A DNA stretch of 64,000 bases from NCBI GenBank assembly GCA_016189025.1, contig JACPGS010000005.1, positions 385 through 64,384 on the forward strand. The letters run 5' to 3'. Below, one piece after another: positions 5,023 to 16,388 of this stretch (positions are counted from its first letter, which is position 1; every line of letters starts with the position of its first letter). The position numbers and the translations under genes are program-made. The notes beneath the pieces are model-generated. The model searched no databases. It saw only the letters and a program-made list of their open reading frames with translations, and was not told the DNA's origin. Origin of the DNA: Candidatus Magasanikiibacteriota bacterium. Lineage in GTDB: Bacteria; Patescibacteriota; Patescibacteriia; Magasanikbacterales; GWA2-37-8.

Positions 5023-5553
5023 ATGTCGGTTAGCAACTCGGAACAAGAAACCAAAACGATGGGGAAGAAACTTGCTGCCCGGCTTAGGGGCGGTGAAATT
5101 GTTTGTTTATATGGAGAACTAGGGGCCGGAAAAACAACGCTCGTCAAAGGAATGGCGGAAGGATTGGGAATTAAAGAAGAAATTACTAGTCCCACTTTCA
5201 CCTTAATGAACGTATATCGCCTACCGGCTACCGCCTACCAGCTACAAGCTCTCGTACACATTGATACTTATCGCCTCAAAAATGAGCAGGAATTAAGAGC
5301 AATCGGCGCCGAGGATTATATTGGCAAACTAGAAACCGTGACGGTAATTGAATGGCCGGAGAAGATGGAAAATTTGCTAAAAGGGAAAAAGACGATTAAA
5401 ATAACTTTGGAGCATGGGGAGAACGGCGAGCGAAAAATTACTTCTTCAAATAATTATTCCCTTTTAATTCCGGTGGCAGATACTCCTGTTCAACCGGTAC
5501 CTCATAATCCGGATTATACTTATAATCCTTCCCATACCCAATCTCCTTCATGA
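5023..5553 (+). CDS. tsaE: tRNA threonylcarbamoyladenosine biosynthesis protein TsaE (YjeE-like P-loop ATPase)
   Basis: GELGAGKTTLVKG Walker A and SPTFTL motif. Start taken at the internal Met (MSVSNSEQE). The 3-prime end overlaps convergent rarA by about 116 nt. Confidence 0.7.
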   Translation: MSVSNSEQETKTMGKKLAARLRGGEIVCLYGELGAGKTTLVKGMAEGLGIKEEITSPTFTLMNVYRLPATAYQLQALVHIDTYRLKNEQELRAIGAEDYIGKLETVTVIEWPEKMENLLKGKKTIKITLEHGENGERKITSSNNYSLLIPVADTPVQPVPHNPDYTYNPSHTQSPS

Positions 5554-6643
5554 ATCTAGTCGGCGCGTTGCGCAGGTGCAAAGGGACGCCCAGGTGCGAA
5601 GTAACGCGCGCGTCTGCCGCTGCCCGGCCATAAGCAGTGTAAAGTAAATTAGATTTTTTTGATTTGGCGCAATAGACTACTGCTTGGGCAAGATGCACTG
5701 TACACTCCGGCATCCCGATTTTGTGGCAGGCGTCATACGCGGCATTAGCTTGAATTAGCGCCTCGGCATTGGCCATGCCAATATCTTCGCTGGCAAATCG
5801 CAGCACGCGACGAGCAATATACAAGGGATCAGCCCCGCCCTCCAGCATCCGCGCCAGCCAATAGAGCGCGGCATTGGCGTTTCCCCCGCGCATGGACTTA
5901 TGCAAAGCCGAGATGACGTTATAAAATTCCTCGCCTTGCTTGTCGAACACCAAATGTGTTCGCTGCAGCGCTTCTTTGATATCATCAGAGGTAATTTGGG
6001 CTTCCTCCCCTTTCCCCTTCACCGCCATCTCCAAAGCATTTAAGGCCACCCGCGCATCGCCCCCAGCTAACTCGGCCAACAATTCAATCGCCTCATCCTT
6101 AATTTCAATTTTCCCTAACCCCCGTTCTTCATCCTTCACCGCGCGCTGAATAATCCGCCTAATATCTTCCGGCTCCAACCGTTTCAAAATAAACACCCGC
6201 GACCGCGACAGCAAGGCGCCAATAATTTCAAAAGATGGATTTTCCGTCGTAGCTCCGATCAGAATTACCACTCCCTTCTCTACATACGGCAATAAAGCAT
6301 CTTGCTGCGCCTTATTCCAGCGATGGATTTCGTCAATAAACAAAACCGTGCGCTGCTGCCCCGCTAACAGTCGCTGTGCGGCGGCGCTCACAATCCGCTT
6401 TAATTCTTCCTTGCCGCTCATTACGGCCGACAAGGCGGCAAAGTGCGACTTCGTTTGCTCCGCAATAATGTGCGCCAGCGTGGTCTTGCCTACCCCCGGC
6501 GGCCCCCACAGAATAAGCGAGGACAGCTCATCATTGGCAATAAGCTGGCGTAATAACTTTCCTTCCCCGATAATCTGTTCCTGGCCGACAAATTCGTCAA
6601 AATTGCGCGGCCGCAGGCGGTCGGCGAGCGGAGTAGTAATCAT
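5438..6643 (-). CDS. rarA: replication-associated recombination protein A (AAA+ ATPase, MgsA/WRNIP family)
   Basis: GPPGVGKTTLA Walker A and a C-terminal ...YLPPELKGNNYLKK typical of RarA. Start taken at MITTPLADRLRP. Its ATG overlaps the cls stop in an ATGA arrangement. Confidence 0.85.
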   Translation of the reverse strand: MITTPLADRLRPRNFDEFVGQEQIIGEGKLLRQLIANDELSSLILWGPPGVGKTTLAHIIAEQTKSHFAALSAVMSGKEELKRIVSAAAQRLLAGQQRTVLFIDEIHRWNKAQQDALLPYVEKGVVILIGATTENPSFEIIGALLSRSRVFILKRLEPEDIRRIIQRAVKDEERGLGKIEIKDEAIELLAELAGGDARVALNALEMAVKGKGEEAQITSDDIKEALQRTHLVFDKQGEEFYNVISALHKSMRGGNANAALYWLARMLEGGADPLYIARRVLRFASEDIGMANAEALIQANAAYDACHKIGMPECTVHLAQAVVYCAKSKKSNLLYTAYGRAAADARVTSHLGVPLHLRNAPTRFMKEIGYGKDYKYNPDYEVPVEQEYLPPELKGNNYLKK

Positions 6644-7752
6644 AAATAATCTTCTATCCGCCGGGCGCCCCATTCCTGCAACTTCTGCCAAAATCCGCGC
6701 TTTTCCCAAGCCTCCCGCAATAGCGGCACTGCCTCGCGCCGCCAGTCGTTAAATAATAAATTCAAATCGCGCACCATATTGGCTTCACTAAAGGCAATGC
6801 CGCTTTCTTCATCCCAATAAAAACTGCGCCGGTTTAAATTGCCGCTGCCGATAAAACCCAGGGTAGAATCCACGCTCATTGCCTTGCCGTGATGCATGCG
6901 CGGCAGCAGAAAAATGTCGGCGCCGGCGCGCGCGGTGGCCGCATAATAAGCGCGGGCCGCCCACTCCATTATCCGGTGGTCAAGGCGAGTGGGAATAAAT
7001 AAATTTACTTTTACCCCCCGGCGCCGCGCCGCCGCTACCGCCCGCAAAAACTGCCGATCCGGCACATAATAAGGAGTGAGGAGGTTTACGCTCTCGCGCG
7101 CCATCCGCAAACTGTCGCGGTAGAGCTGGCGCAGGCGGGCAGTGCGGGGATGTTGCGGCGAGTGGATGATAAAACGGATTTTTTCGCGCCACTCCCGCCA
7201 TTCCGGCAAATGTAAGGCGAGCTTAGGGTGAAGCAGGTGACGTACCGCCCCCCGCTCCCCGCCGGCCGCTAAATAACTCTTGGCAAAGGCGCGCAATAAG
7301 GGGCGCACTAAAGGGCCCCGGATCTCCACGTGCAAATCGTCCCAGGAACCGCAGCTAGCCATAATGTTAACCCCGCCCAGGAAAACTGTTTCTTCATCAA
7401 TAATCAGAGTTTTGCGGTGCGTGCGGTGAGAAATGCGGCGCCAAAAATGACGCCAAGAGAACTCCGGGTAAGGCGGATGAAAACGCAATACTTCCACCCC
7501 GCTCCCGCGCAGACGCGCCAGCGCCGCCCCCGACAGATCAGCGCTGCCGATGGCATCAATTATCAGCTTAACTTCTACGCCCGCCCTAGCCTTGTCACAC
7601 ATTAATTGAATAAAGCGATTGCCTACCTCGTCATCCAAAAAAATATAAACTTCCCAATAGATTGATTGGGTGGCGGCCGAGACACCCTGGAACATCGCCT
7701 CCCAGGCCTCGGCCGTGGTACGGTAGAAGTGGTAAGCAAAAGGGAAAGTCAT
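6640..7752 (-). CDS. cls: phospholipase D / cardiolipin synthase family protein (two HKD motifs)
   Basis: HRKTLIIDE...GGVN and HGKAMSVDS...GSGNLNRRS match two HxKxxxxD motifs. Start taken at MTFPFAYHF. Confidence 0.75.
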   Translation of the reverse strand: MTFPFAYHFYRTTAEAWEAMFQGVSAATQSIYWEVYIFLDDEVGNRFIQLMCDKARAGVEVKLIIDAIGSADLSGAALARLRGSGVEVLRFHPPYPEFSWRHFWRRISHRTHRKTLIIDEETVFLGGVNIMASCGSWDDLHVEIRGPLVRPLLRAFAKSYLAAGGERGAVRHLLHPKLALHLPEWREWREKIRFIIHSPQHPRTARLRQLYRDSLRMARESVNLLTPYYVPDRQFLRAVAAARRRGVKVNLFIPTRLDHRIMEWAARAYYAATARAGADIFLLPRMHHGKAMSVDSTLGFIGSGNLNRRSFYWDEESGIAFSEANMVRDLNLLFNDWRREAVPLLREAWEKRGFWQKLQEWGARRIEDYL

Positions 7753-7809
7753 ACAACAATTAAAACAAAAACTCCTAAGAGGGATTATAGCACGGCCAGC
7801 CCAGGCGTC

Positions 7810-7849
7810 AAAAAACAGCTCCACGGAGCTGTTTACGGAGCTGTTTTTT
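7810..7849. terminator. bidirectional intrinsic terminator-like hairpin
   Basis: A6-CAGCTCCacgGAGCTG-(tttacGGAGCTG)-T6. On the minus strand it sits just downstream of the 7917..8573 gene. Confidence 0.4.
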
Positions 7850-7916
7850 GATTTAAGTACAAATTTACGACCGCGCCGGGCTCTTTTTCGTAATTATGGG
7901 GATTTTCGTGCACGTT

Positions 7917-8573
7917 TCACGCGCGCGCCGTTGGCGTGACCACCCCTTCACAACAAACCTGGTGCTGCATGTTCCAAATTAAATATCTCACCGCCGAACT
8001 CTCTAAAACGGTAGATTGGCTGGAAAGAAGTTTTTTAATTTTACGAGCAAAGGACTGTTTAGAATTTTTATGAGCTTCTTTTGGTGTGTGATTTTTAAGT
8101 AATGACACCATTACCTGATTAGACGGTTCTAAAAATATCTCGGCGGTCTTATCTTGCTCTGGCCGCGTTCGCTTATTCTCATCATACAAAAAAATGAAAT
8201 CTTCATCATAACCAATGTACGCGTCCGCTTCGGCTTTTATGCTGCTTGGTCCCAAAATTTTACCAGAACGGCAAGATAGAGCATAAATAACTTTTGACTT
8301 TAACAATTTTTCATTATCACCGGCACGAACCAATTCCTCATTGTCTTGACCAGTTACAACATCATAATTTCCATGACCATTCAAAAATACTATTGTTGGC
8401 TCGTTTTTCTTAATCATACTTTCAAATTCTTTGCGGCTAGCCCGTTTTTTGTCTAAATCAAAAACATCGCTACCTTTTTCTTTGGCCAGTGTGATTATTT
8501 TATTAGCCCAAGTAGAAATGTAGCGAGTGGTCAAATCAAAATTTGGCCTGGTAACAAGCAACCTATGCTTCAT
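7917..8573 (-). CDS. caspase-like (clan CD, caspase-hemoglobinase fold) cysteine peptidase-like protein, 218 aa
   Basis: His-Cys dyad context TIVFLNGHGNYDVVTGQD ... VIYALSCRSG resembles caspase SHG...QACRG, with 37-aa His-Cys spacing. AT-rich codon usage. Confidence 0.45.
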   Translation of the reverse strand: MKHRLLVTRPNFDLTTRYISTWANKIITLAKEKGSDVFDLDKKRASRKEFESMIKKNEPTIVFLNGHGNYDVVTGQDNEELVRAGDNEKLLKSKVIYALSCRSGKILGPSSIKAEADAYIGYDEDFIFLYDENKRTRPEQDKTAEIFLEPSNQVMVSLLKNHTPKEAHKNSKQSFARKIKKLLSSQSTVLESSAVRYLIWNMQHQVCCEGVVTPTARA

Positions 8574-8775
8574 ACAGCGCTCCTTCCTTAAGGCCGCGCA
8601 AGAAACTCATCTCTACCTCAACTATTTTTTGGCCGATATCATCGCCGTTTTCTACATGAGCAATCATTTCATTTCTGTCAAAATTTCCTTGTGAGCCAAT
8701 CGACATGCCAGTATCCTCCGGCAAGGTCTTAAGCCGCTCAATAACTAATTGTTTTATCTCTTGTTCAGAAACCAT
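8563..8775 (-). CDS. hypothetical small protein (70 aa)
   Basis: Tightly packed upstream of the caspase-like gene (11-nt overlap); AT-rich. Confidence 0.35.
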   Translation of the reverse strand: MVSEQEIKQLVIERLKTLPEDTGMSIGSQGNFDRNEMIAHVENGDDIGQKIVEVEMSFLRGLKEGALYEA

Positions 8776-8778
8776 ATA

Positions 8779-8973
8779 CTATATAATTTTTAAATCGGAT
8801 AATTTCTCCAAAATCATAGCACCTATTTCGGTATCATTATCCACTTCCAAAAAGGCTACCTGCCAAGTAATTGGACCTTTGCCGGGGATAACCAAAATAA
8901 CTTCTTCGCGGAAATTTATAGGAAGATTAGCAAAAACTTTATAGAATTGTTGTTTTTGTTGTTCTTTGCTCAT
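8779..8973 (-). CDS. hypothetical small protein (64 aa)
   Basis: First gene of the AT-rich three-gene cassette; 4-nt gap to the next gene. Confidence 0.35.
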   Translation of the reverse strand: MSKEQQKQQFYKVFANLPINFREEVILVIPGKGPITWQVAFLEVDNDTEIGAMILEKLSDLKII

Positions 8974-9120
8974 ATAGTTTATACTACTCTAAACACTCAT
9001 AAAATTCAATACTTACCAATGCATACCGATCTTTTAATACTTATCCTTAATTTCCCATGTTCTTTCAGGAGTCTTGGTCATATAATACATTTCACCTTCT
9101 ATAAATTTAGTATGGTTATA

Positions 9121-9338
9121 CAACCAAATCCGAACCTATTTTATCGCAAATGTGTAATTTTGGGAAGGCCGCCCGACGGCTCCGCGCCCCGACCGAAGCG
9201 TCGGGGCTGGCAAATCCCGCAAAAATTTTCAATTCTTTTTATAGGGCGCGAAGCGGGCAAAAATTCCCTCTCCCTAACCCTCTTCCTTTTTGCCCGCTTA
9301 CGAGGGCGGCGGCCGATTTTTTGGGCGGGCGGCGGGCG
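9121..9338. repeat. long inverted repeat A, copy 1; partner at 14195..14518
   Basis: About 218 bp nearly identical to the reverse complement of 14195..14518, which carries an extra insertion of about 110 bp. Contains the hairpin GCCCCGACcgaagcGTCGGGGC. ORFs inside it (9150..9524, 9141..9428) are repeat artefacts. Confidence 0.7.
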
Positions 9339-14061: not shown

Positions 14062-14194
14062 ATTGAGCTACGAATTATCATAAATCATTGTAATTATTAT
14101 ACCAGATTGGATGTGAATACACAATCGTCGTAGGGGAGTTCATATTTGTTGCGCGCGCAAGGGTGGGTGGGGCAAGCGCAACGACTATTATTTC

Positions 14195-14518
14195 GCCCGC
14201 CGCCCGCCCAAAAATCGCCTGCCGTCCTCGCAAGCGGGCAAAAAGGAAGAGGGTCAGGGAGAGGGAATTTTTGCCCGCTTGCGTTTCGCGCCGAAGGCGC
14301 GATGGGGAAAGCGGCTCCGCCTCCGCCGAATGGCGGAGAGACAATCCCGCAAAAATTTTCTTCCTTATTTGGAAAAGAAAAATCGCGCGCGCCCTATAAA
14401 AAGAATTGAAAATTTTTGCGGGATTTGCCAGCCCCGACGCTTCGGTCGGGGCGCGGAGCCGTCGGGCGGCCTTCCCAAAATTACACATTTGCGATAAAAT
14501 AGGTTCGGATTTGGTTGT
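14195..14518. repeat. long inverted repeat A, copy 2 (with an insertion of about 110 bp)
   Basis: Reverse complement of 9121..9338. ORF 14078..14629 and others inside it are repeat artefacts. Confidence 0.7.
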
Positions 14519-14519
14519 T

Positions 14520-14577
14520 TGTCGCCGATTTTTGGCGCGCCGAGGCGCGCCTGTTTCCCCGCCAAGAGGAGGTTCGA
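14520..14577. repeat. 58-bp inverted repeat, left copy, flanking the serine recombinase gene
   Basis: TGTCGCCGATTTTTGGCGCGCCGAGGCGCGCCTGTTTCCCCGCCAAGAGGAGGTTCGA is perfectly reverse-complementary to 16181..16238. Confidence 0.75.
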
Positions 14578-14794
14578 CATCCCGTGCGATTTTGAAATTC
14601 TGTATCGTTTGAGTATTTGCTTTGCCCAATACAAAAAGAATTTTTGCGACAGGGATAAGGTATGGTATACTGATAATGCTACCAACCTAAATCCGAGAAA
14701 CTCTTTTTTAATGGCCGTCTCGGACAATCTTTGAGAGTTTCTCTCTTGGGTTGGTAGCACCGGGGCGGCCATTTAAGTTTTAACGCATAAACAT

Positions 14795-16354
14795 ATGACG
14801 CAAAAATTCTTTTTGTACACCCGCAAGTCTACGGATGTTGAGGATAAACAAATCCTCTCGATTGAAGCCCAACTCACAGAATTGCGCGCCTTTGCCAAAG
14901 AGAATAATTTGGAAATCGTGGAGGAGTTAATTGAAAAACAAACCGCGAAAGTGCCGGGTCGTCCCATTTTTAATGTTATGCTTGCCAGAATAGAAAAAGG
15001 AGAGGCCAATGGAATTTTGTCTTGGCACGCAGATCGTTTGGCGCGCAATTCCGTGGACGGTGGAAGAATTATTTACTTGCTTGATATAGGTAGACTTGCG
15101 GCGTTGAAATTTCCAACGCTGTGGTTTGACAACACGCCGCAAGGAAAGTTCATGCTCAACATCGCTTTTGGGCAAAGCAAATACTACGTTGATTCACTTT
15201 CGGAGAATGTGAAACGAGGATTGCGCCAAAAAGTCAGACGCGGAGAATATCCGAGCATTGCGCCAGTCGGCTATCTCAATGACGTGCGGCTGAAAACAGT
15301 CGTAGTGGACAAAAAGAAGTCGGCGATTATTAGTCAAGCGTTCGAACTCTACGCGAAAAATGACAGCCGTCTCGAAGATATATCTGACTTTTTGGCGCAC
15401 CAAGGCATTACCTCTCGCGGTGGCAAACCGCTCAAACGAGACAGAATTTCTTTTATCCTTTCCAACCCGTTCTATGTTGGGCTGTTTCAGTACGCAGGCG
15501 AGCTTTACGAAGGAAAACACCAGCCAGTTATCTCAAAGAAAATTTTTGACCACGTGCAGGAAGTATTAAAGCAGAGAGGACGGCCGCACCATAAAATCAA
15601 GAATGAATCGCAACCGTTCTGCGGACTTTTTTACTGCACCTGCGGCATGATGATTACTGGCGAATACAAGGTTAAGAGACAAAAAAATGGCAACGTGCAT
15701 TACTACACTTACTACCATTGCTCCCGAAAATCCAAAACCATCATTTGCAAAGAACCTTGTATTCGCCAAGAGGCATTGGATATACAGGTGTCCTCTCTGC
15801 TTCAAAAATTTTCTTTGAGCGAGGATTGGGCGGCGGAACTTTTGAAAATGTTTGAAAAGGACAGCGTGCAAGCCGCCCAATCCTCGACGGCTTTTGTTCA
15901 AGAGGCGCAGGGGAAGATTGAGGAAATTAAAACCAAGCTCCAGCGACTTCTGGACTCATATTTAGAGCAGGATGTTGAGCGCGAAGTGTATCTCAAAAAG
16001 AAGGCGGAACTGATGGGCGAAAAGAAGTCGTTGGAAGAAAAAAGTATCACTCTTAAACAAAAGCAAACTGGCTGGGTCGAACCGATGCGGAAATGGATAA
16101 AACAGGCAGAATATCTGCCCAAAATCGCATGGGATAGCAACCTTTTTGGCAAAAAGGTTGCCGCCAAAGAAATCTTTGGGTCGAACCTCCTCTTGGCGGG
16201 GAAACAGGCGCGCCTCGGCGCGCCAAAAATCGGCGACAATTGGGGGCAAAATCAATGGGCGGCCTTGCAGGCCGCCCACCAATTGGCTTCTGAAAACCCG
16301 AAAAGTTTTGTATTGGTACCGCGTACGGGAATCGAACCCGTGTTTGATGGCTGA
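14795..16354 (+). CDS. large serine recombinase (resolvase/invertase N-terminal domain + recombinase domain + zinc ribbon + coiled coil)
   Basis: N-terminal YTRKSTDVEDKQ...SIEAQ catalytic-serine region, Cys cluster CGLFYCTCG...YYHCSRK, long coiled-coil tail. The ORF reads through the right IR into tRNA-Glu, so the true C-terminus is uncertain. Confidence 0.75.
   Translation: MTQKFFLYTRKSTDVEDKQILSIEAQLTELRAFAKENNLEIVEELIEKQTAKVPGRPIFNVMLARIEKGEANGILSWHADRLARNSVDGGRIIYLLDIGRLAALKFPTLWFDNTPQGKFMLNIAFGQSKYYVDSLSENVKRGLRQKVRRGEYPSIAPVGYLNDVRLKTVVVDKKKSAIISQAFELYAKNDSRLEDISDFLAHQGITSRGGKPLKRDRISFILSNPFYVGLFQYAGELYEGKHQPVISKKIFDHVQEVLKQRGRPHHKIKNESQPFCGLFYCTCGMMITGEYKVKRQKNGNVHYYTYYHCSRKSKTIICKEPCIRQEALDIQVSSLLQKFSLSEDWAAELLKMFEKDSVQAAQSSTAFVQEAQGKIEEIKTKLQRLLDSYLEQDVEREVYLKKKAELMGEKKSLEEKSITLKQKQTGWVEPMRKWIKQAEYLPKIAWDSNLFGKKVAAKEIFGSNLLLAGKQARLGAPKIGDNWGQNQWAALQAAHQLASENPKSFVLVPRTGIEPVFDG
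16181..16238. repeat. 58-bp inverted repeat, right copy
   Basis: Perfect reverse complement of 14520..14577. Confidence 0.75.
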
Positions 16355-16388
16355 GAACCATCTGTCCTAGCCCCTAGACGAACGCGGC
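16314..16388 (-). tRNA. tRNA-Glu (anticodon CTC)
   Basis: Minus-strand sequence GCCGCGTTCGTCTAGGGGCTAGGACAGATGGTTCTCAGCCATCAAACACGGGTTCGATTCCCGTACGCGGTACCA. Glu-type D-arm, anticodon loop TTCTCAG, TTCGATT T-loop, CCA end. Confidence 0.75.

Follow-up and report, generated by a model that had tools for sequence, protein, structure and literature searches.

What kind of module do three small, tightly packed genes form in a Candidatus Magasanikbacteria (Patescibacteria/Candidate Phyla Radiation, CPR) contig, and what might it do? The genes, here called A, B, and C, lie on the minus strand of a 64,000-nucleotide (nt) stretch of contig JACPGS010000005.1, hereafter the window. A sequence-only reading had described them as an AT-rich cassette (7917–8973) of overlapping or abutting genes for two tiny proteins and a caspase-like peptidase. 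The three open reading frames (ORFs) were found where it had placed them. Gene A (8779–8973, minus strand) comes first and encodes 64 amino acids (aa). Gene B (8563–8775, minus strand) lies between A and C and encodes 70 aa, and gene C (7917–8573, minus strand) encodes a basic protein of 218 aa. Genes A and B share a frame and are separated by 3 nt, and B and C overlap by 11 nt. The GC content is 38.5% in the cassette and 53.2% in the remaining window. Together, the three genes combine a minimal family with a predicted clan CD (caspase-hemoglobinase) fold and two novel partner proteins in a mobile cassette that is common to CPR bacteria and DPANN archaea. This combination appears to be new.

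The C protein of the window is 100% identical to NCBI entry HYV42_00820. It contains both motifs from which a caspase-type His/Cys dyad had been proposed, FLNGHGNYDVVTGQD and YALSCRSG. Its structure was modeled with AlphaFold2 from a 33-sequence alignment (pLDDT 93.8, pTM 0.90). The model consists of an alternating strand/helix core, a three-helix bundle, and a last strand. In a Foldseek search against PDB, the top matches were clan CD peptidases. They included the CHAT protein DdvA (8rw5, E 3e-4), SAVED-CHAT (8tl0, E 4.6e-4, TMq 0.59), caspase-11 (6ns7, E 8e-4), and gingipain R (1cvr, TMq 0.58), as well as legumain, the TPR-CHAT of Craspase, and separase. CheY-like receiver domains ranked after these and had far lower TM-scores (~0.33). 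In the viral structure library BFVD, the model matched a Megaviridae 'caspase domain protein'. The alpha/beta/alpha sandwich of clan CD is common to families C11, C13, C14, C25, C50, and C80, and the predicted structure of C has it as well. Structure prediction and fold search thus indicated that C has the clan CD fold, as the sequence-only reading had supposed.

The putative dyad is formed by His67, located in NGHG after strand 61–65, and Cys101, located in ALSC after strand 95–99. The two residues stand in His-then-Cys order at the ends of consecutive core strands, with a Gly after the His, which is the arrangement of the clan CD dyad. Both were present in 325 of 325 distinct full-length homologues, so the proposed pair proved invariant, and the spacing between them was 34 residues in 151 of the 167 scored sequences. 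Among the 325 homologues, D141 was kept in 99% and position 13 was always Asp or Glu. It is a matter of speculation that these two acidic positions line an S1 pocket. On the basis of its fold and its invariant His/Cys pair, C was regarded as a putative protease of the clan CD type.

Profile libraries were searched with all three proteins. No model of Pfam, NCBIfam, PADLOC, or PHROGs matched A, B, or C, in agreement with the earlier statement that the module could not be named. The window C protein had no Pfam match at E ≤ 1, and the suggested relationship to Peptidase_C14 or CHAT found no gathering-score match. When 33 members of the C family were scanned at E ≤ 10, 27 families were retrieved, and neither CHAT (PF12770) nor Peptidase_C14 (PF00656) appeared in the top 25 by frequency. 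The sole recurrent weak Pfam match was Peptidase_C25 (2 of 33 members, E = 0.0075). Neither the Pfam scan nor the model revealed a sensor or regulatory domain in C. There were 172 close database clusters for C, and an exhaustive profile search returned 2366 family representatives at 50% identity with E < 1e-3, including 368 with E < 1e-30. In our view, C defines a new minimal family that has a caspase-hemoglobinase fold and whose members are putative peptidases.

The A family comprises 1173 database members of ~60 aa, none of which is annotated. P18, R22, and W37 are invariant in A, and its C-terminal '..KII' end is kept. A had no Pfam or PDB sequence match. The B family comprises 612 members of 67–90 aa, likewise without annotation. 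The AlphaFold model of B (pLDDT 91.3) contains helix 4–16, strands 23–26 and 30–33, and helices 34–43 and 46–63, giving a predicted helix/beta-hairpin/helix/helix fold. No significant match to this model was found among PDB folds, and the best ones were prefoldin beta subunits (E ~0.4). The median isoelectric points of A and B were 5.7 and 5.3, whereas that of C was 8.8.

A and B resemble each other. In two MAFFT alignments, the A family was superimposed on the B family over the entire core, with the same hydrophobic pattern and with shared glycines (B G30/A G33 and B G48/A G51). The hhalign comparison of A with B aligned the same helix-turn-helix (HTH) stretch each time, at only P = 0.01–0.04. 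From these alignments, A and B are probable rather than proven paralogues. An 'LP…R' pattern had raised the possibility of a sigma-70 region-4-like or other HTH identity. This was not supported; the B model differs, and its HTH matches had E > 1 and were no better than prefoldin. HTH Pfam domains were also absent across 64 and 72 members of the A and B families. An NCBIfam KH-domain match of B (E = 0.023) was taken as noise. No natural fusion among A, B, and C was found, and the extra length of P0038 is a frameshift tail.

To follow the trio beyond the window, 86 loci (82 distinct) were gathered from species-representative genomes and metagenomes. A, B, and C occurred in this order and on one strand in 86 of 86 loci, indicating that the cassette is conserved far beyond chance. 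Both small ORFs, whose conservation the sequence-only reading depended on, were thus present throughout, and the A–B–C neighborhood was constant in related genomes. Intergenic gaps of −4 to +13 nt were seen, and the commonest A–B gap was −4 nt and the commonest B–C gap −8 nt, values typical of translational coupling. Clustering of all flanking ORFs revealed no further conserved neighbor. The next commonest flanking gene, MgsA/RarA, was found in just 6 of 82 loci and was rejected as a conserved neighbor.

The CPR hosts were Magasanik-, Kuenen-, Falkow-, Uhr-, Roizman-, Gottesman-, Woese-, Moran-, and Nomurabacteria, together with Saccharibacteria, Gracilibacteria, and Peribacteria. The DPANN hosts included two complete chromosomes, those of archaeon GW2011_AR20 (CP010426) and an Aenigmatarchaeota member (CP066684). 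A neighbor-joining tree of C roughly followed CPR taxonomy, and five archaeal copies were monophyletic. The C protein of L083, a 5.5-kb contig labeled 'Nanoarchaeia', nested in a bacterial clade at 76% identity. A rough prevalence of ~800 among 185,579 species genomes was estimated from 119 confirmed matches to a peptide pattern present in just 15% of family representatives, indicating that the cassette is widespread yet patchy. Fourteen loci came from records with the titles Gammaproteobacteria, Bdellovibrionales, Omnitrophota, or Methanosarcinales, labels that are unconfirmed (L017, L027, L031, L032, L035, L039, L043, L049, L053, L059, L060, L069, L072, and L077). The C proteins of these loci are nevertheless nested within CPR or DPANN groups, which may reflect either mislabeled records or a host range that extends beyond CPR and DPANN.

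The cassette has its own transcription signals. A promoter was read from the sequence at 8981–9009 (minus strand), with −35 TTGAAT (9009–9004), a 17-nt spacer, and −10 TAGTAT (8986–8981). It lay under the threshold of a consensus scan (8 of 12 matches). A sigma-70-type promoter, TTGaaa-N17-TAtAAT, stood at an equal distance from the ATG in L007, L009, and L010, so that the element is common to the four closest loci; upstream of the −35 box, the similarity among them disappears. The −10 box ends 7 nt ahead of the ATG of A, and the A mRNA is probably leaderless or nearly so. Downstream of C, a bidirectional intrinsic-terminator-like hairpin (A6-CAGCTCC ... GGAGCTG-T6) was found at 7808–7851. It is a 15-nt perfect inverted repeat (7808–7822/7837–7851) flanked by an A-run and, on the opposite side, by a T-run, which agrees with the bidirectional terminator noted earlier. 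RNA folding of 7795–7925 on the minus strand gave −45.4 kcal/mol (z = −4.24), and 0 of 200 shuffled sequences equaled it. With its own promoter and terminator, the cassette is transcriptionally self-sufficient.

The cassette was compared with its closest relative, L007, using blastn. The two shared 83% identity over 1062 nt, corresponding exactly to window positions 7947–9006 on the minus strand. This conserved unit contains the promoter and A–B–C without the variable C-terminal tail of C. The flanks showed no blastn similarity to any locus. Among 20 locus pairs whose C proteins were 70–87% identical, none had any homologous flanking gene in common. Direct repeats of 19–151 nt (88–100% identity) bracket the cassette in at least 15 of 82 loci, and the repeat-to-repeat unit is mostly 1.14–1.42 kb. 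As controls, pseudo-cassettes of equal size were placed in the same loci. Repeats were detected at 11 of 56 real cassettes and at 1 of 194 pseudo-cassettes (Fisher's exact P = 3e-7). Since the similarity stops at the cassette edges, flanking genes are not shared, and repeats flank the unit, the cassette is a mobile unit that has been inserted at many genome sites. Its mobility, like the probable paralogy of A and B and the sharing between CPR and DPANN, goes beyond what the sequence-only reading had proposed.

The flanking repeats were unrelated between loci and were copies of the local target sequence. In L074, L020, and L014, the duplication derives from the 3' end of the upstream gene; in L068 and L026, from the 5' end of the downstream gene. 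In L058, the cassette lies at the 3' end of a tRNA-Gln gene, whose 3'-terminal 26 nt are duplicated (5441–5466, 6792–6866), and no integrase is present inside the repeat-bounded unit. In L053 (3986–4332), the cassette directly follows a tRNA-Leu, tRNA-Met, tRNA-Met cluster. No recombinase was found inside the repeat-bounded 1.14–1.42 kb, and neither terminal inverted repeats nor a common att site were found across loci. The GC content of the cassette tracked that of the host (r = 0.65), yet it was lower than that of the flanks in 68 of 79 loci, in the window by 15 points. The contig of L035 (CAZFNL010000023.1, 1618 nt) carries little beyond the cassette, with an identical 26 nt at 1–26 and 1593–1618. 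These ends hint at either an assembly break at flanking repeats or a circular form of the cassette.

In the complete AR20 chromosome (L074, CP010426.1, 3869–6770), three copies of the ~132-nt 3' end of a VanZ-like gene enclose two intervals, the first occupied by a HEPN and Polbeta-type nucleotidyltransferase pair and the second by A–B–C. Both Pfam scores (HEPN and Polbeta) were just under the curated cut-offs, and the architecture is that of a typical HEPN-MNT toxin–antitoxin pair. The VanZ 3' end is an insertion hotspot with small cassettes in tandem.

A distant relative was found in an archaeal virus, Caudoviricetes sp. vir519 (L087, BK063666.1, 4229–5172; host Methanofastidiosa). It encodes a C-like protein of 248 aa (27% identity) that has retained both GHG and ALSC and bears an extra transmembrane segment at its C terminus. 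One 66-aa ORF overlaps the start of this gene, and its C-terminal half is weakly similar to A and B (~8 bits). L087 is possibly a two-gene divergent relative of the cassette. A queuine tRNA-ribosyltransferase gene lies near its C-like gene. A phage or plasmid origin of the cassette was considered and rejected; there were no IMG/VR relatives, no plasmid matches, and no PHROGs family, and L087 was the single distant homologue in an archaeal virus.

How might such a cassette work? We tentatively favor, at somewhat less than even confidence, a mobile module of the addiction or defense/abortive-infection type in which C is held in check by A and B. The effector of this autonomous, horizontally mobile unit would be C, a minimal caspase-like cysteine protease with His67/Cys101 as its dyad. 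Both A and B, small acidic paralogues, would be co-translated with basic C in stoichiometric amounts. They may bind C and hold it inactive or set its specificity, in an antitoxin- or securin-like manner. When A and B are lost or displaced by stress, infection, or loss of the cassette, C could be freed to cleave cellular or viral proteins. A more specific version appears doubtful to us. It would make the cassette a new class of mobile protease 'switch', in which the smallest known caspase-type effector is controlled in trans by a heterodimer of the A and B paralogues with a new fold. The 1.1–1.4-kb unit would spread without a recombinase, leaving long target duplications, would be exchanged across domains specifically among ultra-small CPR and DPANN episymbionts, and would serve addiction or abortive infection.

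Several observations are consistent with an addiction or defense module. As in toxin–antitoxin systems, small proteins are encoded upstream of a larger putative effector in a compact, coupled operon (86 of 86 loci), and the cassette is accessory, horizontally mobile, and variable in location. Such mobility is typical of addiction and defense cassettes, and together with the tandem insertion beside the HEPN–nucleotidyltransferase pair it lends indirect support to a role in conflict. To our knowledge, all characterized prokaryotic caspase-like/CHAT systems (Craspase, SAVED-CHAT, and gasdermin-activating proteases) act in defense or cell death, and the literature matches were consistent with this. 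Other observations weigh against such a role. PADLOC, Pfam, NCBIfam, and PHROGs recognized none of the three proteins. Among the 134 nearest flanking genes, which have housekeeping functions, defense genes, integrases, and transposases were not enriched. Neither a PADLOC-DB 2.0 match nor residence in a defense island was found, and the HEPN–nucleotidyltransferase tandem of AR20 was the sole association with known defense. A and B are unusually well kept for antitoxins (mean column identity 44–50%), and nothing in the fold of B suggests DNA binding or protease inhibition. Much of the inheritance of C looks vertical and transfers between domains look few, a history not usually seen in toxin–antitoxin modules. 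The conflict/defense or protein-processing role suggested in the sequence-only reading was accordingly not established, given the lack of a PADLOC match and of defense or mobile genes enriched in the flanks.

C was compared with known clan CD systems. CHAT proteases (SAVED-CHAT 8TL0; Csx29/TPR-CHAT of Craspase 7Y84 and 8D9H; the DdvA anti-sigma factor 8RW5) were its best structural matches, with E values of 3e-4 to 1e-3 and TMq up to 0.59. Like C, they are prokaryotic, carry a His-then-Cys dyad after consecutive strands, and are conflict-associated. The GHG and LSCxSG motifs of C resemble the 'HG' and 'LSAC' motifs of CHAT. However, CHAT proteins have 470–870 aa, whereas C has 218 aa and lacks a TPR, SAVED, or transmembrane sensor domain. 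The partners of C are two novel 60–70-aa proteins, whereas those of CHAT systems are CRISPR effectors or cyclic-nucleotide sensors. C also shares its fold with C14 caspases, metacaspases, and orthocaspases, legumain (C13), gingipain (C25), and separase (C50). Apart from the weak Pfam match to Peptidase_C25, there was no family-level sequence match to these caspase-type families. C has neither a p20/p10 linker nor a prodomain, and where the C-terminal part would usually be, it has a three-helix bundle. A precedent for restraint of a clan CD protease is the separase–securin pair, in which a small partner protein keeps the enzyme inactive.

In organization, the cassette resembles omega-epsilon-zeta and paaR-paaA-parE operons, in which two small genes precede, and are coupled to, that of a larger enzyme, and which combine acidic small proteins with a basic enzyme. 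Like these three-component toxin–antitoxin operons, the cassette is self-contained, patchy, and mobile, and in AR20 it sits at a HEPN–nucleotidyltransferase hotspot. In contrast, A, B, and C have no homology to known toxins or antitoxins, and A and B are far better kept than typical antitoxins. The literature holds no protease of the C fold known as the toxin of a three-component toxin–antitoxin-like module, and no description of the A–B–C cassette was found in the searchable literature. The module is nearest to caspase-like/CHAT conflict proteases in function and to three-component toxin–antitoxin operons in organization, and it is a member of no catalogued family in either class. CPR-C4 (PDB 7OB6) is a highly conserved, novel cysteine protease of ~220 aa from an unannotated, CPR-restricted family (PMC9108980). 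Its fold, which includes an antiparallel sheet, is vasohibin/transglutaminase-like, and its triad runs Cys61→His93→Leu115 (PMC9108980). C is likewise an unannotated CPR protein of ~220 aa and a putative cysteine protease, but an identity with CPR-C4 was ruled out. Fold and family differ, the order is opposite (His67 before Cys101), and the C profile had no 7OB6 match in a PDB sequence search.

Other explanations were weighed against an addiction or defense module. C may be a site-specific maturation protease, or a transpeptidase or ligase of the legumain type, with A and/or B as its substrates or adaptors; the matured small-protein complex would be useful to ultra-small episymbionts. The strict co-occurrence and coupling of A, B, and C would fit such processing. 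Clan CD enzymes are typically processing proteases of narrow specificity, and legumain and butelase ligases were among the fold matches. A and B are kept along their full length, and the invariant R22 of A and R14 and K63 of B could be P1 residues. The housekeeping genes in the flanks and a C tree that partly follows taxonomy point the same way. However, A and B appear to be compact folded domains and not leader/core precursor peptides, and no other conserved neighbor is present to use a processed product. The patchiness, insertion footprints, and shifting position are more in keeping with an accessory selfish cassette than with a cellular pathway. On balance, we consider a processing role, the main rival, unlikely. 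Less probable still is that C is caspase-like in fold yet no protease, being another thiol-dependent enzyme or a non-catalytic scaffold with A/B. The absence of C from any peptidase family by sequence, TM-scores of just 0.5–0.6 to clan CD structures, and putative S1-pocket residues that match no known specificity would agree with it. Non-catalytic caspase-like domains, however, normally lose the dyad residues, whereas in C the His-Gly and the Cys are invariant (325 of 325) and stand exactly at the clan CD dyad positions. We also take the NGHG and LSCxSG motifs of C to resemble SGHG and D/LSCxSG of metacaspases and CHAT.

Two further explanations concern the spread of the cassette, and both are very improbable in our view. 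A, B, and C might encode their own mobility functions and constitute a new minimal transposable or integrative element, as the movement of a recombinase-free unit and its common flanking target duplications could suggest. Yet we know of no recombinase or transposase with the fold of C, and no resolvase, integrase, or transposase was among its fold matches. The duplications are long and variable (19–151 nt) and often regenerate gene ends, which fits integrases of the host or of islands acting in trans, or a homologous single crossover, better than a transposase that makes staggered cuts. Terminal inverted repeats are absent, and no locus contained multiple copies. The repeats, the GC anomaly, and the cross-domain spread could instead be artefacts of metagenome assembly and binning, leaving a plain conserved Patescibacteria operon. 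Most loci do come from metagenome-assembled genomes, some record titles are implausible (Gammaproteobacteria, Bdellovibrionales, and Methanosarcinales), the L083 'Nanoarchaeia' copy falls inside a bacterial clade, and the L035 repeat lies at contig ends. Against this, two archaeal copies are on complete chromosomes (CP010426 of AR20 and CP066684 of Aenigmatarchaeota), and five archaeal copies form their own clade. Independent assemblies, among them the complete genome of AR20, carry the repeats, which were 40-fold rarer at control positions.

CPR and DPANN make up a large share of microbial diversity, and few of their lineage-specific genes have an assigned function. The cassette joins a recognizable catalytic core and two partner proteins in a 1-kb unit and is thus directly testable. 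If active, C would be the most compact caspase-type protease known and would offer a clean system for the in-trans regulation of a clan CD protease. The insertion footprints indicated that a small cassette moves without a recombinase of its own, also between domains of life, which bears on gene exchange among episymbionts with reduced genomes.

The surroundings of the cassette in the window were also examined. Just downstream, on the minus strand, lie a phospholipase D-like (PLD-like) gene of the two-HKD, cardiolipin-synthase type (6640–7824) and the gene of the AAA+ ATPase MgsA/RarA (5438–6709). In the other loci with MgsA near the cassette, its side varies, and the proximity probably reflects residual synteny without a functional link. 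No flanking direct repeat was found around the window cassette, and no att-type direct repeat ties it to the tRNA-Glu gene described below.

The cassette stands at the edge of a low-GC stretch (7.9–16.4 kb) that also contains an ABC-transporter operon, a large serine recombinase gene, and tRNA-Glu. The stretch looks like an integrated island. A long inverted repeat has arms at ~9120–9338 and 14194–14518 (131 nt at 100% and 74 nt at 92%). Its left arm starts 147 nt from the start codon of A, consistent with the left inverted repeat that had been noticed directly beside the cassette. The 4.9-kb segment between the arms contains a 235-aa ORF and genes for a PrmA-like S-adenosylmethionine methyltransferase and an ABC transporter (ATPase, permease, and NMT1/THI5-like binding protein). 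The recombinase gene is bracketed by another inverted repeat, a perfect one of 60 nt (14519–14578 and 16180–16239). Both inverted repeats could mark segments that invert, belong to a composite element, or stem from faulty assembly. The large serine recombinase (519 aa; 14795–16354, plus strand) has Resolvase and Recombinase domains. Its gene ends inside or beside tRNA-Glu(CTC) (16314–16388, minus strand), which forms the right edge of the low-GC stretch.

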